From positions 114,049-178,048 of IMG/VR virus record IMGVR_UViG_3300048672_000512: a stretch of 64,000 nt of DNA; one strand, given 5' to 3'. Position 1 is the stretch's first letter, and each line of letters begins with the position of its first letter. Source of the DNA: a virus. Positions 2,705 to 63,226 of the stretch are shown here, piece after piece. The notes under the pieces are model-generated. The model had not been told where the DNA came from and ran no database searches. It saw nothing but the letters and a program-made list of their open reading frames with translations. The position numbers and the translations under genes were made by a program.

Positions 2705-3077
2705 TTGTATTTCCTTTTCTGTTGAGAGCCTTGAGGCGCAGACGTTCCAATTCAGCCAGCACGTTTACTTCGCCTGTAAATTCTTTGGTTCCAGAAGCAC
2801 CAGAGGGTTTTCGTATCTCAAGGCGCAAACAGGGAAGGTCTAAGGTATAACGAAGAGTAATAGTTCTAGCCGCACTTGGTGAGGACGCACGCATCGATGA
2901 ATCGTGTGCGGTGAACTGGAAACCTAGAGTTTCAGCCGTGTCCAGAAAAGCCTCTCGCAGCTGTGTAGTTGCGTTTGAGTACAGAGGATTCTCTCGATGC
3001 CGCAGGTTGTTTTTCAAGTCCTCTACAACGCATTTAATTTGATAGCGGCAAGTCTTGTAATTGGACTTTTGATGCAT
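2697..3077 (-). CDS. Hypothetical protein
   Basis: 126 aa, tightly packed with neighbours. Confidence 0.6.
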   Translation of the reverse strand: MHQKSNYKTCRYQIKCVVEDLKNNLRHRENPLYSNATTQLREAFLDTAETLGFQFTAHDSSMRASSPSAARTITLRYTLDLPCLRLEIRKPSGASGTKEFTGEVNVLAELERLRLKALNRKGNTSE

Positions 3078-3079
3078 GC

Positions 3080-3667
3080 TCAGTCAAACCCAACTAATTC
3101 AAATTGAAGACGGTTTACCAAGGACGGCCCAAAACGCCTTAGAAACTTGGTGGTCGATCCTATGGTGTACTCCACATCGTATCTATCTCGCTGCTGTCTG
3201 TAATACAGAACGCCAGCCTTTGTGTAGGCAAAGATGACATCGGAGTTCGTTGTGTAGACGTCACGAGAATCGTCTACACAAATGCGACAACTTGTCACGT
3301 CTGGAAAGCTGCGAGTTGCATACGTGAATGTGAGCGTGTCGTAGTAGTAGAGCTGCGCGTCACCACTCGTAAGTTTCCATGCTATAGCTAGGCCCATGTT
3401 GTTATCAAAGGCTAACGACACGGACTGCACGTTAGCTACTGCAAGCGTGAATGCAGTAGCTCCACCAACAGGATTCACAATTATGTTTCCTCCTGTATAT
3501 GTCACTTCCCAATTCTGATACTCTCTGCCAAGAGATGGGTCACTTACAGCAACACCTCCAGGCGCAACGTGATGCAAAGGCGTGTACGCATTGTCATAAG
3601 GAGGTTTGAAGTCAGCCACCTCTGGGGCGACAGTGAACGTATTAGCCGGTATCATCCGCGTGCCCAA
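3080..3667 (-). CDS. Putative tail/baseplate-associated structural protein
   Basis: Beta-rich, T/V/Y-rich, at the distal end of the baseplate operon. Confidence 0.5.
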   Translation of the reverse strand: MGTRMIPANTFTVAPEVADFKPPYDNAYTPLHHVAPGGVAVSDPSLGREYQNWEVTYTGGNIIVNPVGGATAFTLAVANVQSVSLAFDNNMGLAIAWKLTSGDAQLYYYDTLTFTYATRSFPDVTSCRICVDDSRDVYTTNSDVIFAYTKAGVLYYRQQRDRYDVEYTIGSTTKFLRRFGPSLVNRLQFELVGFD

Positions 3668-4566
3668 CTTAGCCGAATGTTGAGCGTAAGAACCTTGGTA
3701 TTATCTTTCGGAATTGGCGTTGGGAACAGGCATTGGAAATTAGTATCTCCAAACTGACCAAAACCAAAACGAAGCGCGCCGATGCCGCCTGCAGTGTTTC
3801 CTTGCGTAGTACTAAACGATAGCGTGTAGTCTCGATAGTAATTACCATTTGTGTAAGCAGTAGCCGACGGAGTACCGGGGACAGTAGATCCTGCAGGCTG
3901 GGACGTTATTGCTCCTAGAGAAGTTGTGGTAGCTGGATACGCAACAAGGTCATAAGTGTTTGAAATAGCAGTGGTATTGAAGATACCAGTTCTAGCTAAA
4001 AAACTACCAACGACACAAGCGCGCATGGTATAGCTGTAACTGGTGCCGCCAAGCGTTACAGAACCAGTACCGTCCGTGATAGGTGGTGCGATGCGAAGAC
4101 GGTAAAAAACAGTAAGCTGATCTATCGATGTCAGTGTAATAGTTGTCGGAGATCCACCTCCATCAACAATCAGAGCACGACTGAACAGTCCACCGGAAGC
4201 CGACTGCCAACCAACACCAACTTCAGAGATATTACCAACGACAGCTCCTTGTGCAAAAGCGAGCGAGAACGTGTGAGTGGTCCTATAGTTTGGTGAGCCT
4301 TCATTTGTATAAGAGCTAGCTCCACTTATGGACGAGGATGTAGAGGCTAGATAGCTGGAAAGAGACGTCTGCGTGTTAGCTGGCGCGGTGGTTCCGGTTC
4401 CAACCTGTGCGTAGTTGATAACCCCAGTAGCTGCGTTACCTATTTTGTCAAGACCTGCGTCCAGAATGAGGTTGTCAAACCAGCCGGTTTCTGACACTTG
4501 TTGCCCATTGCGAGAAACAACCAAGTTGTACTGACCAGAGATAGATAGGTGTGTAGTCAAGCTCAT
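3652..4566 (-). CDS. Putative tail fibre-proximal structural protein
   Basis: NLILDAGLD..G, VGTGTT.P, GNISEVGVG, LTVFYRL motifs typical of phage tail-associated proteins; G/S/T-rich. Confidence 0.6.
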   Translation of the reverse strand: MSLTTHLSISGQYNLVVSRNGQQVSETGWFDNLILDAGLDKIGNAATGVINYAQVGTGTTAPANTQTSLSSYLASTSSSISGASSYTNEGSPNYRTTHTFSLAFAQGAVVGNISEVGVGWQSASGGLFSRALIVDGGGSPTTITLTSIDQLTVFYRLRIAPPITDGTGSVTLGGTSYSYTMRACVVGSFLARTGIFNTTAISNTYDLVAYPATTTSLGAITSQPAGSTVPGTPSATAYTNGNYYRDYTLSFSTTQGNTAGGIGALRFGFGQFGDTNFQCLFPTPIPKDNTKVLTLNIRLSWARG

Positions 4567-51791: not shown

Positions 51792-52517
51792 ATGACCTAC
51801 ATCGTTCAAATCATCGCTCAGAACTCGGTTCGTGTTGTCGAAGCTCCGACAAAGCCGGAAGACGCAGCTACCAATGACCTTCGTATCAGCGGCACTGCAA
51901 TGGTTCCGAAGGACCAAGTGATTCTTACTGACTCCACCGGCATGGCGATGATTGCTGGTCCGTTCACTACCGTGCTGCGCGCTTCTGAAGTCACGCTTTC
52001 GCCGAAGGGCTACTACACGGTAGTTTCTGAAGATGGCGTTCAATCGAAGCTGTATCCGAATCCGAACATCATCATCACAGTGACTGACGAGTCGGAATTC
52101 CTGCCTCAAGCGGAAGAAGCGGAAGAAGCTGAGGAGGAAGAAGAGGAAATTGAAGAAAAGCCGGCCAAGCGCACCAAGAAGGTTGTCGAACCGGATCCGG
52201 AAGAAGAGGAAGAAGAGGATTTCGTTCCGCCGAAGCGCAAGGCAAAACCGGCAGCTAGCAAGAAGAAGGTTGTCGAGCCGGATCCGGAAGAAGATGAAGA
52301 TGACGAGGAAGAAGAGGAATTTATTCCTCCGAAGCGCAATGCAAAGGCCGCTGCAAAACCGGCAGCTAGCAAGAAGAAGGTTGTAGAACCTGACGAAGAC
52401 GACGACGAAGAAGACGAAGAGGAAGATGATGAACTTCCGGTGCGTGCAAAGCCGGCAGCCAAGTCTGCTCGCAAGCCGGTACGCACCGCTTCGATCGACT
52501 TTGACGACGAAGACTGA
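51792..52517 (+). CDS. Protein with a beta N-domain and alternating acidic/basic repeat tail
   Basis: 3x KKVVEPD-(E/D)n-..PxRxAK.PAA; AAGGA RBS. Confidence 0.75.
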   Translation: MTYIVQIIAQNSVRVVEAPTKPEDAATNDLRISGTAMVPKDQVILTDSTGMAMIAGPFTTVLRASEVTLSPKGYYTVVSEDGVQSKLYPNPNIIITVTDESEFLPQAEEAEEAEEEEEEIEEKPAKRTKKVVEPDPEEEEEEDFVPPKRKAKPAASKKKVVEPDPEEDEDDEEEEEFIPPKRNAKAAAKPAASKKKVVEPDEDDDEEDEEEDDELPVRAKPAAKSARKPVRTASIDFDDED

Positions 52518-53807: not shown

Positions 53808-56800
53808 ATGGCAACAAAGAAACTGAAAGATTACGACGCAAGTGCAATTCAGCATCTTGACTACGTTGATTCTGTGCGCAAGAAGCCGCAAATGTACATC
53901 GGACCTACCGATGGGGCCGGCATCTTCACGATTCTGCGTGAGGTCATGGACAACGCACGCGATGAATCGCTAGCTGGTTTCTGCTCTTCAGTTGAAACGT
54001 ACATCGATGACGATGGGTCTTACTGGGTTCTGGACGACGGGCGCGGAATGCCAGTGCAGCCGAAGAAGATCAAAGATCCTGTTTCTGGTAGTGAGCATTC
54101 CATGCCGGCTATTCAGGCCATTACTTCTCTTCTTCATGCAGGTGGAAAGTTTTCAAAGGAAGGTTCCTACAACAACACGGTTGGTTGCTTTACTGGAGAT
54201 ACAAGAATTCGACTGCTGGATGGTCGCGTTCTTTCTATGGAGGAACTGCATGCACATTGGACAAAGACAGGAAAGAACCTTCCAGTTCTTTCTTACAGCA
54301 CGCGCAAGCAGCGACTTGAGCCGTCTGAGATTTCGTTTTCACAACTGACCAAGAAAACGCGAGACTTGGTTGAAGTAACACTGGATAACGGCAACACGCT
54401 TCGCTGTACACCAGAGCATCCGTTTTACGTAAGGAGAGGTGGCTCCATAAAGCGAGTGCAAGCGCAGTATCTGCGGTTTGAAGACTCTCTAGTTACCACC
54501 TATTACTACAGCGATCGGCACGCTAGGGCTAACGATACTGAACACGGACCTCACGACTACTACAGTGTAACTGACAACGGCGTAGGTAAACCACTGCATC
54601 GACTTGTAGGCTCCTTTGATACAGAGAAGCGTGTGTTTGATGATCTGCGCGGACAGTCGATTGACATTCATCATAAGAACAAAAAAGTTCAGGATAACCG
54701 CCAGGATAACCTTGAACGCTTGTTCATGTCGGACCACCATCGTGAGCATGCAGAAGACCGGTCCGCGTTAGCCAGAGACAAGATTCTTGAAACTCAGGCT
54801 GACCTTAGAGCAGAAAACTCTAGTCGGTTTACGCGTCAGAACACACAAGAATGGCATAAGATTCAGTCGGGTCAGAAAAAAGCTCTAAAGATAGCGGCCC
54901 GAGCAATAGAAACCTACGGCGTATTCAACGCAGTCACTTACAGCGAATCTCGTAGAGGAACTGACGCAAAGTATTCAGTTGCAGTTTCCTACTTTGAATC
55001 GGAAGCAGATTTCGCTAAGGAAGCTAATAAGTTCTATAAAGACCTTGTCCAGAGAGTTGGCCGATCCTACCTTGCAGAGGACACTCTGTCTGGGTCTAAC
55101 GCTTCGCAAAAGACGCTGCAAGAAGTTGCAAAGGAAAAGAGCGACCTTGCTAGGTTTGACCTGTGGAAAAAGAAGCTTCTGAGCTTCAAGAACCCAAACA
55201 CCGTTACGCCTCAAGAGTGGAACGCACGTCGCTCTAGCGACTATAAGATGGGAACATCTGCCTATGCTTTACTTGCTAGTGTTACGACACTAGCTGCTCT
55301 GAAGCGCCATGTTCTGAATGGTGAAGCTCTGGTATGCTATGAGGACATGTCAGAAGAAGCAGTGACAATGCGCCGAGCAATTGCGGAGTATCGGGTTGCT
55401 ACTGAGCAGAAGCGCTACAGTTTTCTGAACTACAGCATTAGGCGACTCAGGTCTTCTCTTGGCGAGCGTTCTTACAGTACTGACCTGCATAGAAGCCTTC
55501 TTCGCAAGAGCCGCAACCTTCCTGACGAGATGATGTTCAAGATGTTTGCTTCCAAGCATCTGGGCCTTGAATTTGAAGACTGTACTGATGACGAAATTGA
55601 CACATTGATTCAATCATGGAACCATACTGTACTTGGCGTCAGAAAGTTGAAGCTACAGAATGCGGTTCCAGTGTATGACATAACTGTTGACCACACGCAC
55701 ACCTTCTTTGTTGAAGCTGGTGTTGGTGTTCATAAACCAAAGAACGGGAAACCTGACATTGACTGCTTCGCTTCAGGTGTTTTGGTTTCGAATAGCCACG
55801 GAGTTGGCATCAAGGCGACAAACTTTCTAAGTGAGTACTTTGAAGTCTACACTTTCAACGCTGGAGCATGGTGGTTTCTTGACTATGAATTTGGTCGCCT
55901 GTCAACTCCACTGAAGAAGGTCAAGGCACCGCTCAAGCCTGGAAGCAATTCAACGCTCAAGAAAGGTACGCTTGTACACTTCAAGCCAGACCTGTCGATT
56001 TTTAGCGAACCTGTGTTTCCGTCGATTCTTCTTACCGACTGGTCGCGCATTGCTTCGTACTTCACCCCAGGTTTCAAGATCACTCTTTCGCATCACTCTG
56101 GAAAGGTGCGAGAGTTTCAAGCTGACGGCCCTGCTCAGTATGTGGTGGACCGTCTAGCAAAGCTGCAAGCTACGCCATTGATTGACGTTGAACCCTTCAA
56201 CTTTGAATCTGGTTTGGTGTCTTGCGTGCTGCAGTTCACCGGTCACGATGGTTGTGACTTTGCACCATTCACCAATGGTCTGTACAACGCTGAAAAGGGT
56301 GTTCACTTCAATGCTTTCTTTCAAGCACTGATTGCAGCGTTGCAGCCTTTTGTGAAACGCAAGCAGGAGTTTTCAGCAACTGAACTTCGAGAAGGCATAG
56401 TTGGCCTGCTTAACGTCAAGCTTGAGGCTCCAAAGTTCTCAAGTCAGACCAAGGAAAAGCTGGTTGACGATCGTGCTGCTGAACCAGTCAAGGAATTGAT
56501 TCTTGAAGCCCTGACAGCATTCTTCAAGAAGAACAGGGCTCTAGCTGAAGCTGTGTGCGAACGCGCAGCAAAGCTCAAGGAACTGCGCAATCAGTTCACT
56601 GCTAGCAAGGCCGTGCTATCTACGCTTCGCAAGATTGCAAAGAAGGGGCTGCCCCTGAAAGCATGCACTGCCTACGACTGCAAACCTGAGGATAGAGAAC
56701 TGTATCTTGTTGAAGGGGACTCCGCAGCTGGCTGTTTTCTTGGTGACACAAAGGTTCGACTTATAAATGGTGTTTCGATGTCGTTTGAAGAAATGGTGCG

Positions 56801-57701
56801 TCAAAGCGAAGCTGGTAAGAAGCTGTACGGTTACGCCTACAACTTGAAAGAGTCTTGCACAGAAGTTATTGAATTTGACACACCGAGAATAACGAAGCAC
56901 GTAACTTCGTACGTTGAAGTAGAACTTTCAAACGGGGAAATTCTGCGTTGCACAGAGAATCATCCGTTCTTGTTGCGGTCAGGGGTCTATAAGGCAGCAG
57001 AGAAACTGGAACCTGGCGACTCGTTGATGACGCACGCAGAAGAGATACATGCAAAAGTAAGCGGTTTTAGCTCCGGAATAAAGCGCAGAGTAGCTATAGC
57101 ACCTGGAAAGAAGAATGGTGTTGGCACTATGGTGTATAAGAAAGCTGTTCTTCTTAACCGGAAAGAACGTCGCAAGCTAGCTACTGGAATGCACATACAT
57201 CATAAGGATAACGACAGCTTGAACGACGATCCAAGCAACCTTGAAGTATTGACGCAAGAAGACCATGTAAGAGAGCACTCAAATTCACCGGGTGCAGTTG
57301 TAGCTAGAGCTAACTTCGGTAAGTTGCATGCGGAAAGAATGAAGACAGACTTCTCTTATAAAGAAAAGTCTATTAAGAATACAACAGAAGTATTTCAGGA
57401 ATACTGGAGCGACGCATCCAACCGGAAACTGCAATCAAAAGCAGTAACCTACTACTTTAAGAATCTAGAAAATAGAAAGAAAACGGCAGAGGCTACTCGC
57501 ATAGGCATGCGCAAGTTGTGGCTCAGCATAGCTAGTCACGCTGTAGCAATCAAACTGGATCCTTTTACCGATGCCGGATTCGACGCGGCAAAGCAAAGAC
57601 TTGATTGCAAAACACCGATGAAGGCAAAGTCCTGGCAGAAGTTCTTTGATACAAAGAGCGCTGCTGTGAAGAGCGTAAAATCCTGGAAGGAAGTCAAATG
57701 A
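53808..57701 (+). CDS. gyrB: Type IIA topoisomerase B subunit, N-fragment (ATPase, transducer, intein 1, split intein N-half)
   Basis: VRKKPQMYIG, LREVMDNARDE, DDGRGMP, HAGGKF, HGVG, SQTKEKL, LYLVEGDSAAG. Confidence 0.93.
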   Translation: MATKKLKDYDASAIQHLDYVDSVRKKPQMYIGPTDGAGIFTILREVMDNARDESLAGFCSSVETYIDDDGSYWVLDDGRGMPVQPKKIKDPVSGSEHSMPAIQAITSLLHAGGKFSKEGSYNNTVGCFTGDTRIRLLDGRVLSMEELHAHWTKTGKNLPVLSYSTRKQRLEPSEISFSQLTKKTRDLVEVTLDNGNTLRCTPEHPFYVRRGGSIKRVQAQYLRFEDSLVTTYYYSDRHARANDTEHGPHDYYSVTDNGVGKPLHRLVGSFDTEKRVFDDLRGQSIDIHHKNKKVQDNRQDNLERLFMSDHHREHAEDRSALARDKILETQADLRAENSSRFTRQNTQEWHKIQSGQKKALKIAARAIETYGVFNAVTYSESRRGTDAKYSVAVSYFESEADFAKEANKFYKDLVQRVGRSYLAEDTLSGSNASQKTLQEVAKEKSDLARFDLWKKKLLSFKNPNTVTPQEWNARRSSDYKMGTSAYALLASVTTLAALKRHVLNGEALVCYEDMSEEAVTMRRAIAEYRVATEQKRYSFLNYSIRRLRSSLGERSYSTDLHRSLLRKSRNLPDEMMFKMFASKHLGLEFEDCTDDEIDTLIQSWNHTVLGVRKLKLQNAVPVYDITVDHTHTFFVEAGVGVHKPKNGKPDIDCFASGVLVSNSHGVGIKATNFLSEYFEVYTFNAGAWWFLDYEFGRLSTPLKKVKAPLKPGSNSTLKKGTLVHFKPDLSIFSEPVFPSILLTDWSRIASYFTPGFKITLSHHSGKVREFQADGPAQYVVDRLAKLQATPLIDVEPFNFESGLVSCVLQFTGHDGCDFAPFTNGLYNAEKGVHFNAFFQALIAALQPFVKRKQEFSATELREGIVGLLNVKLEAPKFSSQTKEKLVDDRAAEPVKELILEALTAFFKKNRALAEAVCERAAKLKELRNQFTASKAVLSTLRKIAKKGLPLKACTAYDCKPEDRELYLVEGDSAAGCFLGDTKVRLINGVSMSFEEMVRQSEAGKKLYGYAYNLKESCTEVIEFDTPRITKHVTSYVEVELSNGEILRCTENHPFLLRSGVYKAAEKLEPGDSLMTHAEEIHAKVSGFSSGIKRRVAIAPGKKNGVGTMVYKKAVLLNRKERRKLATGMHIHHKDNDSLNDDPSNLEVLTQEDHVREHSNSPGAVVARANFGKLHAERMKTDFSYKEKSIKNTTEVFQEYWSDASNRKLQSKAVTYYFKNLENRKKTAEATRIGMRKLWLSIASHAVAIKLDPFTDAGFDAAKQRLDCKTPMKAKSWQKFFDTKSAAVKSVKSWKEVK
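54186..55793 (+). mobile_element. Intein 1 (class 1, 536 aa, HNH) in the GyrB ATP lid
   Basis: NNTVG|CFTGDT...CTPEHPF...HHKNK..DN..NL...VYDITV...VLVSN|SHGVG. Confidence 0.92.
56733..57698 (+). mobile_element. Split intein, N-half (322 aa, carries HNH)
   Basis: EGDSAAG|CFLGDT...CTENHPF...AEKLEPGD...HHKDNDSLND.PSNL; ORF stops without blocks F/G. Confidence 0.88.
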
Positions 57702-57931
57702 AAAAGTCGTCGTGTGAAAAGCTCACACTGTCTAAGGAAGACAGGCTGCGCCTTAAGAATTCAAAGGCTACAGGGAAGAGAACTAGGCGTTCTTTGCATC
57801 AGGGTGTTGTTACTAATACTATTACAGTAAAGTCTGTGAGGAAGGTCACATGCGATCCTATTCCAGTTTATGACGCTACGGTTCCGAAGTACCACAACTA
57901 TGCATTAGACGCTGGCATCTTTGTTCACAAC
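57698..57931 (+). mobile_element. Split intein, C-half (78 aa, strongly basic)
   Basis: M...VYDATVPKYHNYALDAGIFVHN|TAK; AAGGAAG RBS and ATGA overlap. Confidence 0.88.
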
Positions 57932-59872
57932 ACGGCAAAAGGCGCTAGAGACAAGCGATATCAAGAACTGCTTCCATTGCGAGGCAAGTTCCTGAACGCA
58001 TACAAAGCACCGATAGAAAAGCTTCTTGCGTCAGAAGAGGTTCTGAACATCCTTGCAACAATGGGTTTCGATCCTAAGGCAGAAGATCCTTACAAGAGTC
58101 TGCGAGTGAATCGACTGATCGCATTGGCTGATGCCGATGTTGACGGACCCTTGGGCCGTCATACTCCTGTAAAGCTTTGCGATGGAACCACCAAGACAAT
58201 GGAGCAATTAGCTTCCATGTGGGAGGAGGCTCCAGACGCACCTATTTGGGTATGGGGTGTTAACAAAAAACGCGAGCTAGTACCAGCTAGGGCTTACATG
58301 CCATCAGTGACAACTACCAGTAGTAGTTATATGAAAATCACTTTTGATGATGGCTCTGTAATAAGGTGTACAAACGGGCATGCGTGGCCGGTTAATAATC
58401 TGGAACGTAGCCGCACTAAAAAGACACATAAAGGGTTCAATTACTGTCTTGCAAAGAATCTGGTAGTTGGTGACTCGATACCCGACGTAACTTTCACCTT
58501 TAAGAATCACGACAACTACGATGGGTACAAGTCTTATATAGCACCTGATGGTAGCTACCGTCTTCTGCATAGAACCGTAATGCAAAACGTGAAATCAAAA
58601 CAGTATGCAAAGTACGCTGCAGCAAACACTGGTGTACACGGTGGCGCGATACACGTCCACCATAAAGACGAAAACAAGCTCAACAATTCACCCGAGAATC
58701 TAGAGTTTTTATCTCGCTATGAGCACTCCAGGTTGCATATTTCTGCATACGCAAAGGAGTACAACGGATCTGAGCGGCATATACAAGACTTGAATCGGTT
58801 CTGGGAAAACAACCCACAGGCTCGCGTCAAGGCTGCAGACAGAATCACGGCGTATAACAAGTCAGAAGCGCATCGTAAAGTTGTTTCTAGTATGAATGCT
58901 GACCCTGAAGTTAAGAGGAAGCAGGCCTTGGGGTCGCTGGCGCGGTTTTTTTTGGGACTTAAGGATGCAGGTGTTTCATTCAGTAAGCATGCAGGGTATC
59001 GGTTTGTCACTGGTAACTCGTATCGCGGAGCTGAACCCTCAATGAGCAAGTTTGATATCTCCATAGCGGATGTGACTGCGTTTATCAAAGAGCGGGGACT
59101 GAAACTTTCTGACGGGTACAAAGTACTACCTGTTTCTCAGACCGCAGGTAAACCCTATGCTAAGACTAAGCCTTCGCAGGAGGCCGCTCTTAAGAAGTTC
59201 CTCATACACTGCAAAAGAACAAGTTTGAAGTATGGCGTCCTCAATGAGGAGAAATATGAAGAGTACAGGATCGGAAGGTTTAGTAGATACCCGCGCTGGA
59301 ACTTAGGAAAAGATATTTTCAAGCAGGAGTATGGTTCTTTTTCAACGAGTCTACTGAAGAAAAAATTCCAGGCTGTCAATCACACAGTTGTTGCTGTAGA
59401 GCAAGTCACAAGTAAGACACCCCGAGACTTCTACTGCATGGCGGTTCCAGATACAGGAAACTTTCTGATAGAGGACAAAGATGGAAATGGGATTGTTACA
59501 GGTAACTGCCATATTAACATCCTGATTCTTTCACTGCTTCAAAAGCTGCTTCCGGACTTGTTTGCGCAGAAGCGTGTTTACTATGTAAAAGCGCCGGAGT
59601 ACTATGCAACCACAAAGTCCGGAGCGGTGTACGGATATACTAAGGAAGAAGTTCAAGCGCAGCTTGTTGCGCTCAAGGCTACGTCTGCTCAGATAAGCCA
59701 CATCAAGGGGTGGGGTGAAATCAATGCCGACATGTTGAAAGAACTAGCATTCAATCCTGAAACGCGCCGACTGGTTCTGATTGACTCTGACATGAGTGGA
59801 ACTGAAGAAGAGGCACTGTCTTTTCTGATGTCCAAGGACGTTTCTGCACGCAAGCAACTTCTGGGGATATAA
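57698..59872 (+). CDS. gyrB: Type IIA topoisomerase B subunit, C-fragment (split intein C-half, TOPRIM, class 3 intein)
   Basis: TAKGARD, LPLRGKFLN, DADVDG..CHI, HIKGWGEIN, TRRL. Confidence 0.92.
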   Translation: MKKSSCEKLTLSKEDRLRLKNSKATGKRTRRSLHQGVVTNTITVKSVRKVTCDPIPVYDATVPKYHNYALDAGIFVHNTAKGARDKRYQELLPLRGKFLNAYKAPIEKLLASEEVLNILATMGFDPKAEDPYKSLRVNRLIALADADVDGPLGRHTPVKLCDGTTKTMEQLASMWEEAPDAPIWVWGVNKKRELVPARAYMPSVTTTSSSYMKITFDDGSVIRCTNGHAWPVNNLERSRTKKTHKGFNYCLAKNLVVGDSIPDVTFTFKNHDNYDGYKSYIAPDGSYRLLHRTVMQNVKSKQYAKYAAANTGVHGGAIHVHHKDENKLNNSPENLEFLSRYEHSRLHISAYAKEYNGSERHIQDLNRFWENNPQARVKAADRITAYNKSEAHRKVVSSMNADPEVKRKQALGSLARFFLGLKDAGVSFSKHAGYRFVTGNSYRGAEPSMSKFDISIADVTAFIKERGLKLSDGYKVLPVSQTAGKPYAKTKPSQEAALKKFLIHCKRTSLKYGVLNEEKYEEYRIGRFSRYPRWNLGKDIFKQEYGSFSTSLLKKKFQAVNHTVVAVEQVTSKTPRDFYCMAVPDTGNFLIEDKDGNGIVTGNCHINILILSLLQKLLPDLFAQKRVYYVKAPEYYATTKSGAVYGYTKEEVQAQLVALKATSAQISHIKGWGEINADMLKELAFNPETRRLVLIDSDMSGTEEEALSFLMSKDVSARKQLLGI
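58148..59506 (+). mobile_element. Class 3 intein (Pro1, WCT triplet, 453 aa, HNH) in the TOPRIM DxDxDG motif
   Basis: DADVDG|PLGRHTPV; block B CTNGHAW; block F FYCMAV; block G IVTGN|CHI. Confidence 0.9.
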
Positions 59873-60415
59873 GTGGAAAACCAAAATCTTTTCAGTATGG
59901 ATTGTCTGACAGCATTCTATCAAACAACTCTGCAGTTGATAGAAACGCAGAACGCACTACGCCAGTCTTCGGGCTTTAAGCAAGTGTCAGGGCTCTTCAA
60001 TGCAGACCTGATTCCAAACGAATTGCATTACGTGGAGTATGAATGTAGAAACAAGACTCTGCGCTCAAGGCGAGCTACGCCGGTTCAGACATACGGTGTC
60101 ATAAACGATGTTGTGACTCTGACAATAGAAGCACCTGACGCTGCACTGCGTCTGACGCTATCTGCAAATTCAGTGCTGAATGTTGTCACTCTTGGAAATG
60201 GCCCGACAGACTACGGAGTACCAAAGCAAAAGAGTATTAGAGCTGCAAAGCTTCGAGCCGGAGACATGCTGCCAACTGTCAATCCAAACATTAATGCAAA
60301 AATTGTGAAGGTGGAACACAAGAAAGAAGACACGCAAGTGTTTGCTTTTCCTCTTGATCTTAACAACGTGGTCAGCTACTACGGCGGTGTCATTATAAAC
60401 AGTGGATTCGACTAA
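59873..60415 (+). CDS. Stand-alone degenerate Hint (intein-like) domain protein
   Basis: DCLT..; LRLTLSANSVLNV (block B without His); IRAAKLRAGDML; KIVKVE...VFAF...GGVIINS. Confidence 0.6.
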   Translation: MENQNLFSMDCLTAFYQTTLQLIETQNALRQSSGFKQVSGLFNADLIPNELHYVEYECRNKTLRSRRATPVQTYGVINDVVTLTIEAPDAALRLTLSANSVLNVVTLGNGPTDYGVPKQKSIRAAKLRAGDMLPTVNPNINAKIVKVEHKKEDTQVFAFPLDLNNVVSYYGGVIINSGFD

Positions 60416-63226
60416 ATGGCGACACGAAGAAAGCAAGCTGTAAACGCTGCTGACGTAGCACCTATTGCCACGCAGCAGTTGATACCTAGCGTAAAGACCT
60501 GGTTAACTCAGTACGGACAAGAAGTTAACGAAGAGCGCTCCATTCCAGACTTTAGAGACGGTCTGAAGCCTGTGCATCGTCGTTCTCTGTGGGCAATGCA
60601 GCAAGTTGTCACTTCTCAGAATAGGCTTATCAAGTCTGCTCGCGTAGTTGGCAATACTATTGGTCAGCTGCATCCGCACGGAGACACTGCGTGTCTCCGA
60701 GGAAACACACTGGTACCATTGCTTAGCGGAACCAATGTAACTATAAAGGAACTAGCTGACAAGAAGTCCGGACCTAAGTGGGTTCTTTCTTACGATGAAG
60801 AAACAAAGTCACTGGTACCGGCACTAGCGCATTCTTGGCGCAAGGCAAAGGTTACTAGGAAGATGTTGCGTATTCACCTGACGTCAGGTGAAGTTATTGA
60901 AGTTACACCTGAACATAAGCTGATAAGTAGCGACCGAGGTTGGCAAGAAGCAAAAGACCTATCAATTGGAGACACCCTAATTGGTGGGGCGCTGATAGAC
61001 ACGGACGGCTACAAAGAAGTGACTCTCAATACCAAGTTCCGTAAAAAGGTGCACATGCTAGTTGGTGACGCCAAGTACGGAGGCAGAGAGGATGACGAGG
61101 TATATCATCATATCGATGAAAATACGCAAAACAATCGCCCTTCTAATCTGCAACTACTTTCAAGAGCAGAGCACGCAATAGCGCATGAAGATAACTACTT
61201 AGACGGGTTGAGCCTAGGTAGAAAACGCATGTTTGCTGAAGACTCATCACTGCGTACTGCAATCCGAAAAAAGAATAGCACTCTCACTAAGGAGGTTAGT
61301 GCGCACCATGGCATACTGATAGCTCTTAAGGCTATTCGCACCCTGCAAGCTAGTAACATTGAGGTAACAGAGGATAATTACGAAAAGCTGCGCCCATGCG
61401 TCTATAATCTTACAAGGCTAGAGACGCTGTATAAAAAAGGTCATAGCTTCGACGAACTATGCTCTCTTGCAAAGGACTTCAAGCTTGACACTAATAAGGC
61501 TAAAGGTTTCACCTCAAAAATAAAAAAAGCACGGAAAGGCACTAGAGTACAAGTGCCTTCTAAGAGCAAGGATCCAAATGGTTTACTGTACGCTAGGCTT
61601 GGTAGCGTGCTGGGAAAACTTCTTGCTATTCACGGAAGTCTGAACTCTGTTGACTGGGATACTTATACAGCGTATGTTAGACGTGAGCCTAGCATGAGCG
61701 CAAACTTTAATAGAGTAGCTTACTCAAAACCGGAAAGGCTTAAGTCGCTTTTTAGTATCAATACAGTTGCAGAGTTAGCTGCTAAGATACCGACATGGTG
61801 TCTAAATGCCGTGGCTAGATTGGAGTATGTTACTCTAGAAGCTAAAGAGACATTCTACGACTTTACCGTTGACAACTATGAAAACATGATTGTGTTTTCA
61901 TCAAACGGTCAAAAGTCTGGAAACTTCTTAGTGGTTCACAACTGCTATAACGCCATAGTTACACTCACTACCTCGTTTGCACCCGTTATTCAAGGTGAAG
62001 GTAACTGGGGTACGCAGATAGACAGCGCAGCCGCCTACCGATATACAAACTGCAACCTCACTGAGCTTGGAAAGCTAAACTTTCACCATTACTTTCTTCC
62101 GTGCGCAGATCTGATTCCTAACTTTGACGGTTCTTCAAAGGAACCGTTAGTGCTTCCTGCTCTGCTACCGCAGTTGCTTTTCAACGGAAGCTCAGGTATC
62201 GGTGTTGGTGTGACAACGTCTATTCCAAGCTTTGAGCCAGCATCCGTTTTGAAAATAATGATTCGACTGCTCAACGGCGAGTCATTATCAACAGAGGACT
62301 ACGCAAAGGGTCTGAAGTTTCAAGAAGTGTATGGTGGTCAACCTATCAAGTCGAAAGAGAATGCAGAAGCGATTCGTGCTTTCTTTGAGGGTCACAAAGG
62401 CTACGTTGACTGGAACAGCGAAATAGAGATAGACAGGGACAGCAAGACAGTGACCATCCTTGCATTCGCGCCAGGTATCTCGCCGCTGAACTTTCTTGAA
62501 AACAAAGTAAAGCCCAGAGACGAAGTGCAGAATGTGTCAGCAGGCGACGTTGGAATGTCATTTGTTATTCGCTGCAAGAAAACGCTGAACTACAATGACT
62601 TTGACAAGTTCGTTCTCTTTCTCAAGAAAGGACTGACCTGCAGAAATCACTACGAAGTGTACGTGACGGAACGTCTTCTAGACGAAGGGTCCGGCGACAA
62701 CTATCACGTCAACTTCTTTGCTATCTCTATACCGAACTTGATAGTTCGTTGGTTGAAGTGGCGATGCAAGCTGGAAGCGCGCTCGCTAGACTTCCGAATC
62801 GAGAAAACGCAAAGTCAGATCGCGTTCACTGAACTGATGATCCTAGCTTGCGACAACCTGCAGATCATCATGGATGCTTTGCGACGCGAAGACACTGCAG
62901 ACTACATTGCAAAGAAGTTGAAGATCAGCATTGAACAGGCAAACGTGATCCTTGATCGAAAGGTTCGCAACCTGTCAAAGCTTGACAACAGCAAGTTGAG
63001 GCTCAGAGTCAAAGAGTTGAAGTCTCTGTTAGCTAGCCTGAAGACGAAGCGCAAGAAGCCCTCGATTGAAGTCAAAGCTTTCCTAGAGTCAACGATTGAC
63101 CGGTTCAAACTTGCCGAAAAGTGGATCGGTACTAGACAGTACAGGCTGCAAGCCGGAACTGCTAACGTCGTGTACACGGACCCCTTACTAGATAGTCAAC
63201 CGTCAGACTTAGAGGCAGCACCCTGA
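60416..63226 (+). CDS. gyrA: Type IIA topoisomerase A subunit (519 aa mature, no beta-pinwheel CTD) with intein
   Basis: IPDFRDGLKPVHRR, KSARVVG, HPHGD, GEGNWG, AAAYRYT (catalytic Tyr), PNFDG, LLFNGSSGIGVG. Confidence 0.93.
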   Translation: MATRRKQAVNAADVAPIATQQLIPSVKTWLTQYGQEVNEERSIPDFRDGLKPVHRRSLWAMQQVVTSQNRLIKSARVVGNTIGQLHPHGDTACLRGNTLVPLLSGTNVTIKELADKKSGPKWVLSYDEETKSLVPALAHSWRKAKVTRKMLRIHLTSGEVIEVTPEHKLISSDRGWQEAKDLSIGDTLIGGALIDTDGYKEVTLNTKFRKKVHMLVGDAKYGGREDDEVYHHIDENTQNNRPSNLQLLSRAEHAIAHEDNYLDGLSLGRKRMFAEDSSLRTAIRKKNSTLTKEVSAHHGILIALKAIRTLQASNIEVTEDNYEKLRPCVYNLTRLETLYKKGHSFDELCSLAKDFKLDTNKAKGFTSKIKKARKGTRVQVPSKSKDPNGLLYARLGSVLGKLLAIHGSLNSVDWDTYTAYVRREPSMSANFNRVAYSKPERLKSLFSINTVAELAAKIPTWCLNAVARLEYVTLEAKETFYDFTVDNYENMIVFSSNGQKSGNFLVVHNCYNAIVTLTTSFAPVIQGEGNWGTQIDSAAAYRYTNCNLTELGKLNFHHYFLPCADLIPNFDGSSKEPLVLPALLPQLLFNGSSGIGVGVTTSIPSFEPASVLKIMIRLLNGESLSTEDYAKGLKFQEVYGGQPIKSKENAEAIRAFFEGHKGYVDWNSEIEIDRDSKTVTILAFAPGISPLNFLENKVKPRDEVQNVSAGDVGMSFVIRCKKTLNYNDFDKFVLFLKKGLTCRNHYEVYVTERLLDEGSGDNYHVNFFAISIPNLIVRWLKWRCKLEARSLDFRIEKTQSQIAFTELMILACDNLQIIMDALRREDTADYIAKKLKISIEQANVILDRKVRNLSKLDNSKLRLRVKELKSLLASLKTKRKKPSIEVKAFLESTIDRFKLAEKWIGTRQYRLQAGTANVVYTDPLLDSQPSDLEAAP
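60692..61942 (+). mobile_element. Intein 4 (class 1, 417 aa, HNH) in GyrA helix alpha4
   Basis: HPHGDTA|CLRGNT...VTPEHKL...HHIDEN..NNRPSNL...FYDFTV...VVHN|CYN. Confidence 0.92.

Follow-up and report, generated by a model that had tools for sequence, protein, structure and literature searches.

A probable naturally split intein that bears its HNH endonuclease in frame, in a phage GyrB-like gene

Results

The window analysed here is a stretch of 64,000 nucleotides (positions 114,049 to 178,048) of the IMG/VR virus record IMGVR_UViG_3300048672_000512, and makes up the last 64 kb of this 178-kb record, whose completeness is estimated at 75%. On its plus strand lies a GyrB-like topoisomerase gene, the only gyrB found in the record, in the form of two overlapping open reading frames (ORFs), each of which carries one half of a candidate split intein. 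ORF1 (53808-57701, 1297 amino acids) encodes an N-extein followed by the N-terminal intein half (IntN), while ORF2 (57698-59872, 724 amino acids), in the -1 frame relative to ORF1, begins with the C-terminal intein half (IntC) and continues into the C-extein. The N-extein (53808-56732) represents the GyrB-like ATPase and transducer part, with Pfam matches to HATPase_c, DNA_gyraseB and Intein_splicing, and contains a cis-splicing type of HNH intein of its own at 54186-55796; over the whole of ORF1, a match to HNH_3 joins these three. The C-extein (57932-59872) starts with the +1 residue, a threonine, and provides the Toprim and C-terminal part of GyrB, with a third intein inside it at 58148-59506. 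In ORF2, the end of the Intein_splicing family is matched first and DNA_gyraseB_C after it.

IntN (56733-57698) is 322 amino acids long and consists of a Hint N-lobe, an HNH endonuclease domain and a helical tail. Its first residue is Cys976 of ORF1, encoded from nucleotide 56733 directly after the extein sequence EGDSAAG, and its block B, LRCTENHPF (56943-56969), holds Thr74 and His77 of the intein numbering. The half thus possesses both the N-terminal nucleophile and the block B TxxH of a class-1 intein. The Hint N-lobe is acidic (net charge -5) and, among solved sequences, its profile comes closest to the split intein NrdJ-1 (8ubs, E 8e-9). IntN also contains an HNH_3 domain (30.3 bits against a cut-off of 24.8) and an extra module of roughly 200 amino acids; the HNH motif, at 57192-57278, is intact and conserved. 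No block F or G occurs in ORF1 upstream of its TGA stop codon (57699-57701). An earlier reading made from the sequence alone had proposed that ORF1 ends in an N-intein with Cys1, TxxH and HNH, lacking the C-terminal blocks; coordinates, Pfam matches and motifs all agree with it.

The complementary half occupies residues 1-78 of ORF2 and is strongly basic (net charge +10, isoelectric point 10.1). It comprises a basic leader of 38 amino acids (57698-57811), common only to the window and one relative, L033, and a Hint C-lobe (57812-57931), in which residues 43-78 of ORF2 align to positions 122-155 of the 155 positions of Intein_splicing. The motifs VYD...HNY...VHN|T represent blocks F and G, the terminal His-Asn and a +1 residue of the Cys/Ser/Thr type, the intein ending at 57931 and the extein beginning at 57932. 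Solved inteins are matched by a profile of the C-half at their C-terminal ends, among them the DnaE IntC chains 4lx3_B and 4qfq_B. The start codon of ORF2 and the stop codon of ORF1 share the tetranucleotide ATGA (57698-57701), and a Shine-Dalgarno-like AAGGAAG (57687-57693) lies 4 nt upstream of the start. The 78-residue basic C-intein with its HN|T end, the ATGA overlap and the AAGGAAG had likewise been noted in that reading, and all of them hold. Between the ORFs, the plus strand shows no promoter-like or terminator-like site, and no ORF separates the two halves, the HNH domain being in frame within ORF1.

The two reading frames are not joined: ORF1 is closed at its TGA, and the ORF2 frame has a stop about 16 codons 5' of the ATG. 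Programmed frameshifting or read-through at the ATGA could still yield a contiguous precursor that would splice in cis, and the 4-nt overlap, the -1 frame of ORF2 and the roughly 16 open codons ahead of its ATG would all suit such recoding. Inspection by eye, however, revealed no slippery heptamer of the X XXY YYZ type at the junction. Similarly, since the window comes from one metagenomic assembly and P0025 (below) is a relative with a contiguous intein, an assembly or sequencing indel or a fresh mutation might have broken an ordinary contiguous HNH intein, leaving an artefact or a recent pseudogene.

Comparison of the region with 50,697 GenBank phage records by blastn gave no match, and scans of IMG/VR with single sequences returned nothing, or matches to the HNH motif only, and no close relative. 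Relatives were obtained by a word-based search with the N-half and then by an exhaustive search of 1.84 billion cluster representatives with a hidden Markov model (HMM) built on that half. The word-based search identified P0002, P0003 and P0004, which are 39-44% identical over 98% of the N-half and all stop where ORF1 stops. The HMM added P0014, P0017, P0019 and P0029, in which the match reaches the C-terminus of the protein, and also P0025, whose protein continues past the break point. All seven of the other N-halves end at one alignment position. In every one of them the next ORF abuts or overlaps, HNH is in frame and no gene intervenes, so that the proposed placement of HNH on the N-half without an intermediate gene holds for the window and for all relatives.

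In five of these relatives (L033, L034, L035, L036 and L038) the next ORF starts with a C-intein ending in VHN, followed by Thr, Ser or Cys, and the ORF next to P0029 carries Pfam matches to Intein_splicing and GyrB_C. A search with the C-half added P0160 and P0161, bringing the ORFs that begin with a C-intein to seven besides the window; the 240-amino-acid ORF next to P0002 is outside this count. At L040, the locus of P0160, the stop of the upstream ORF is visible, and the junction reads TAA-TT-GTG, not ATGA. Alignment scans of IMG/VR and GTDB yielded contiguous inteins, mini-inteins and other genes, and no further split member, one locus (L106) being masked by N. By these comparisons, no fewer than nine further phage lineages, divergent from one another, retain the same break, and the separation into two polypeptides is a conserved state, not a one-off.

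Importantly for the two alternatives, the junctions vary. The ORFs overlap by 4, 8, 4, 11, 11 or 1 nt or are separated by gaps of 1 and 2 nt, with frame offsets of +1 and +2 among the lineages and ORF2 starting with ATG or GTG; a purine-rich stretch precedes the ORF2 start in most relatives as well, as judged by eye. Such differences in junction geometry between lineages exclude both an error of assembly and a frameshift signal held in common. Recoding would demand shifts of +1 in some relatives and -1 in others, or would have to cope with 11-nt overlaps and with gaps of 1-2 nt with a stop in between; no single mechanism is conserved, yet a start codon is always present. We therefore reject the frameshift reading, which we consider very improbable. 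An artefact or recent pseudogene is less credible still, since the break recurs in independent samples and assemblers (contigs from Logan, ENA and JGI, with P0017 on 4 contigs and P0019 on 5) and persists between deeply diverged lineages, whose catalytic residues are all in place; sequencing error was rejected on the same recurrence. The identical break in other lineages, with its differing junctions, also sustains the original view that the break evolved and is no one-base error. As far as comparative sequence evidence reaches, the split intein is real and conserved, and neither a sequencing error nor a programmed frameshift.

On one of the contigs, that of P0019, a free-standing HNH_3 gene (3073-4008) lies directly 5' of the split gyrB-N gene, which it overlaps by 8 nt. 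It is present besides the in-frame HNH of the intein.

Conservation of individual residues bears on whether the halves splice. Across six split loci, Cys1, the block B Thr and His, and the HNH positions HH, D, N, D-P, N-L, H and H are invariant, as are the block F Asp, the block F His-Asn and the terminal His-Asn of the C-half. Position +1 holds Thr, Ser or Cys, the last of these in L038. This constancy is seen against pairwise identities of 33-48% among the N-halves and 26-44% among the preceding 300 extein residues. In principle, the two intein halves might merely dock and hold GyrB-N and GyrB-C together as a non-covalent "intein clasp", splicing having been lost or being unneeded. Such an arrangement has a precedent in Aeh1 NrdA, a fragmented phage enzyme assembled through mobile-endonuclease tails without splicing (PMC3045599), and trans-splicing in the present GyrB pair is itself deduced. 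A module used for docking only, however, would be free to lose Cys1, the Thr and His, the Asp and the His-Asn, whereas all class-1 splicing residues and a nucleophilic +1 residue are invariant in lineages that are just 33-48% identical. Simple docking thus seems an unlikely explanation, and trans-splicing is the reading that we prefer.

The insertion site of the split intein is shared with intact ones. Contiguous HNH inteins reside at the same GyrB site in phage-type GyrB (P0025, P0015, P0044, P0056, P0100) and in bacterial-type GyrB (P0006, P0009, P0010), and they can be aligned with the N-half over its full length, HNH domain and helical tail included. For P0006, P0009, P0010 and P0025 the alignment extends across the intein with identical flanks, marking the same insertion point. 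The site EGDSAxG|S/T, which the sequence-only reading had linked to GyrB inteins, is indeed that of the contiguous HNH inteins in bacterial GyrB (P0006, P0009, P0010). The contiguous inteins at EGDSAGG|S are presumably the Ssp GyrB intein family.

In the alignment with these contiguous relatives, the split ORF1s stop 0-8 residues ahead of the NH+VV strand, with which the Hint C-lobe begins, and the break therefore falls at the C-terminal edge of the endonuclease insertion. This position corresponds to the canonical split or endonuclease-insertion site of gp41-1 and DnaE (10.1101/546465). Thus the break had been correctly assigned to the boundary between endonuclease and Hint C-lobe, although the resemblance of SWKEVK to SWNHTV, on which that assignment drew, was not used here, the break being placed independently by the alignment. 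The accompanying claim of about 40 new residues ahead of the C-lobe did not hold, as only some 25-30 are special to the window and L033. The other split members, too, have 13-18 residues ahead of the first Hint C-lobe strand; IntC measures 50-55 amino acids in most lineages against 78 in the window and 84 in L033, and only these two possess the roughly 30 extra residues of basic leader, with the shared motifs KKSxC and RRSL. In an AlphaFold2 model of the contiguous P0025 (L039) intein, based on a 13-row alignment (mean predicted local distance difference test score, pLDDT, 68.5), the break comes after the last helix (model residues 322-331), in low-confidence coil, with the Hint C-lobe unfolded (pLDDT about 40-58).

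A maximum-likelihood tree of the N-half columns, rooted on the bacterial inteins, requires one change from contiguous to split, with support of 71/88, and 74% of the bootstrap trees agree. Most likely, a contiguous HNH intein of this GyrB site was broken a single time. The same function could also have been reached by a different route, through in-frame fusion of the free-standing HNH gene of a "fractured gene" to the N-intein, which would represent a half-completed step IIIa of Dassa et al. These authors propose that loss of the flanks of the endonuclease gene can bring about the in-frame state, and the overlaps of 6-69 bp that they report between the 3' end of the endonuclease gene and the C-intein gene resemble the junctions described here (PMC2677866). 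Against such a fusion, the whole N-half, with HNH and helical tail, aligns with contiguous inteins of the same site, the bacterial outgroup included, and with the root placed there the contiguous state comes out as the ancestral one. The fusion appears the less parsimonious of the two routes, and we regard it as improbable; a break in a contiguous intein remains our preferred origin.

A further allele is found on a 101-kb IMG/VR contig (L043, match 3001-3324), where a mini-intein of about 145 amino acids lies at EGDSAGG|C in the GyrB of a phage and shows 41% identity to the split family in its Hint N-lobe. Because this mini-intein shares the site with the full and the split inteins, full, mini and split alleles coexist at this GyrB site. 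The contig of the contiguous P0025 encodes, two genes 5' of gyrB (L039:1456-2610), a tubulin-family protein (PF00091), which suggests that it belongs to a large phage with a tubulin-based cytoskeleton.

One pair of split loci offers a view of possible mobility. The N-exteins of L034 and L040 are 94% identical, with a divergence at synonymous sites (pS) of 0.47. Their inteins are only 76% identical in the Hint N-lobe, 76% in the HNH region, 57% in the helical tail and 83% in IntC, and pS climbs to 0.80-0.88 in the intein halves; the rise is thus confined to the intein and includes synonymous sites. When DNA identity was followed in 90-nt windows (L034, 2766-3880), the exteins gave values of 0.82-0.92, and identity dropped from 0.87 to 0.63 on entry into the intein, kept to 0.50-0.72 through the two halves and the break between them, and rose again just after the intein end, the boundaries being sharp on both sides. 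Likely, although not established, the whole two-half cassette was replaced in this pair by a divergent allele, through homing or recombination as one unit. This reading depends on sequence comparison of the single pair L034/L040.

The gyrase genes in the window contain further inteins. That in the ATPase domain of GyrB (54186-55796; NTVG|C...SN|S) is a cis HNH intein, 31% identical to the split N-half, and GyrA contains another cis HNH intein (60692-61942; HGDTA|C...HN|C). In P0003, the homologue of the ATPase-domain intein is much shorter because the sequence after the HNH motif is missing. The third GyrB intein (58148-59506, ORF2 residues 151-603) starts with Pro after DADVDG, has a Trp after the block B His (TNGHAW) and a Cys in block F (FYCM), and ends in TGN|C, features that we take to be the W-C-T signature of class 3. 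L033 and L034 harbour inteins with Pro1 and a block F Cys at this third site, with no recognisable HNH motif, and P0161 has a Cys1...SGN|S intein there.

As for the neighbouring genes, a 180-amino-acid ORF (59873-60415) abuts both gyrB-C and gyrA in the window; in L033 and L034, gyrA follows gyrB-C directly, with no counterpart of this ORF. Upstream of ORF1, a 241-amino-acid ORF (51792-52517) contains an extremely acidic, lysine-rich repeat with recurring units of the KKKVVEPDPEE type, and the long serine-run ORFs on the opposite strand are probably its shadows.

Discussion

Our analysis makes it probable that the phage GyrB-like topoisomerase gene described here carries a naturally split, bifunctional class-1 intein. 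ORF1 and ORF2 would be co-transcribed and probably translationally coupled, giving GyrB-N fused to IntN, with its Hint N-lobe, HNH endonuclease and helical tail, and IntC fused to GyrB-C. If established intein chemistry applies, the Hint lobes would dock non-covalently and class-1 trans-splicing would follow, in which ...EGDSAAG is ligated to TAKGAR... and the Toprim motif becomes whole again. The resulting junction, EGDSAAG-TAKGAR...LPLRGK, would match the intact GyrB motif of P0010. Full maturation of GyrB would also need two cis events, at 54186-55796 and 58148-59506. The released complex of IntN-HNH with IntC could retain a nuclease still able to drive homing. As for its origin, the element most likely emerged when the reading frame was lost at the linker between endonuclease and Hint C-lobe and a coupled start codon was gained.

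Because the halves are contiguous in the DNA (about 1.2 kb), the element could move as one cassette and carry the gene break along. We see an even chance that this is an actively homing split intein, in which the HNH of the N-half cuts a phage gyrB that is intein-free or differently occupied, and repair copies the cassette of IntN-HNH, stop-start junction and IntC. In that case, every homing event would divide a gyrB that was one gene into two genes with trans-spliced products, and gene fission would become horizontally transmissible while being rescued at the protein level. Should the cassette home, it would constitute a mobile element that spreads a gene break together with its own repair at the protein level.

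Several considerations weigh against this picture. Association and splicing of the halves, like nuclease activity and homing, are inferred from sequence, and the shallow AlphaFold2 model of a contiguous relative says nothing on docking. A 322-residue IntN that carries a bulky nuclease is, to our knowledge, unlike any characterised natural split intein. Phage topoisomerases tolerate a multi-subunit make-up, as exemplified by T4 genes 39, 52 and 60, and covalent joining of GyrB is therefore not logically required. Because the +1 Ser/Thr is part of the conserved GyrB motif as well, its conservation does not provide independent evidence for splicing, except for the Cys of L038. A single origin of the split is allowed by the tree with moderate support, and the contrast between L034 and L040 could partly reflect faster evolution of the intein and not replacement of the allele. 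With these points taken into account, we consider the element probably functional and probably mobile.

The GyrB site now provides a sampled series for models of split-intein origin, with a contiguous HNH intein, a mini-intein and a split HNH intein at one insertion point. The lineages supply about ten natural pairs of IntN and IntC, divergent from one another, in which the +1 residue varies among Thr, Ser and Cys and IntC is short (50-55 amino acids in most); these might serve as orthogonal trans-splicing tools once the HNH module has been trimmed.

How does this arrangement relate to known systems? Compared with the contiguous GyrB inteins at EGDSAGG|S, the split clade shares the site and has homologous Hint N-lobe, HNH, helical tail and Hint C-lobe, at 27-43% identity. 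The former, however, are single polypeptides that splice in cis, whereas in the split clade the linker between endonuclease and Hint C-lobe is interrupted by a stop codon and a start codon. With the cyanobacterial DnaE and Nanoarchaeum Pol split inteins it has in common the two polypeptides, an acidic IntN lobe and a basic IntC, a polarity noted for DnaE by Dassa et al. (PMC2677866), and the IntC profile of the split clade matches Npu DnaE IntC chains. Those inteins lack an endonuclease in either half and their halves lie at distant loci, in contrast to the HNH within IntN and the overlapping ORFs found here, which set the present intein apart from split mini-inteins, the form by which reviews define split inteins (PMC4760082).

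The closest parallel is with the "fractured genes" of Dassa et al. (gp41-1, NrdJ-1, IMPDH-1 and others) and with the PolB split intein of phage MIJ3. In all of these, as here, a phage-type replication gene exists as two adjacent genes with an intein half each, broken at the canonical site of endonuclease insertion, and the C-intein gene overlaps at its start with the 3' end of the nuclease coding region. For the fractured genes, however, Dassa et al. describe none but free-standing genes of the GIY-YIG or Vsr-like type as lying between the halves (PMC2677866), and MIJ3 PolB has a free-standing HNH gene (PMC6892783), making three ORFs with a separate endonuclease gene where we find an in-frame domain and two ORFs. 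The contrast that the sequence-only reading had drawn with gp41-1, NrdJ-1 and IMPDH-1 thus matches the published account (PMC2677866). No free-standing endonuclease gene lies between the halves in the window or in its relatives, and IntN measures 316-322 amino acids here as opposed to about 90-105 in the fractured genes. Dassa et al. list no gyrB case, with 0 occurrences of "gyr" (PMC2677866), and one preprint remarks, as a general point, that split inteins can result from a stop codon within the endonuclease, mentioning one case without detail. In the literature, with subscription journals thinly covered, we found no split intein with an in-frame endonuclease on its N-half, no conserved clade of HNH-bearing split inteins and no split GyrB intein. 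The GyrB intein described here would accordingly represent a third natural layout of split inteins, beside the split mini-inteins encoded at separate loci and the fractured genes with their free-standing endonuclease gene.

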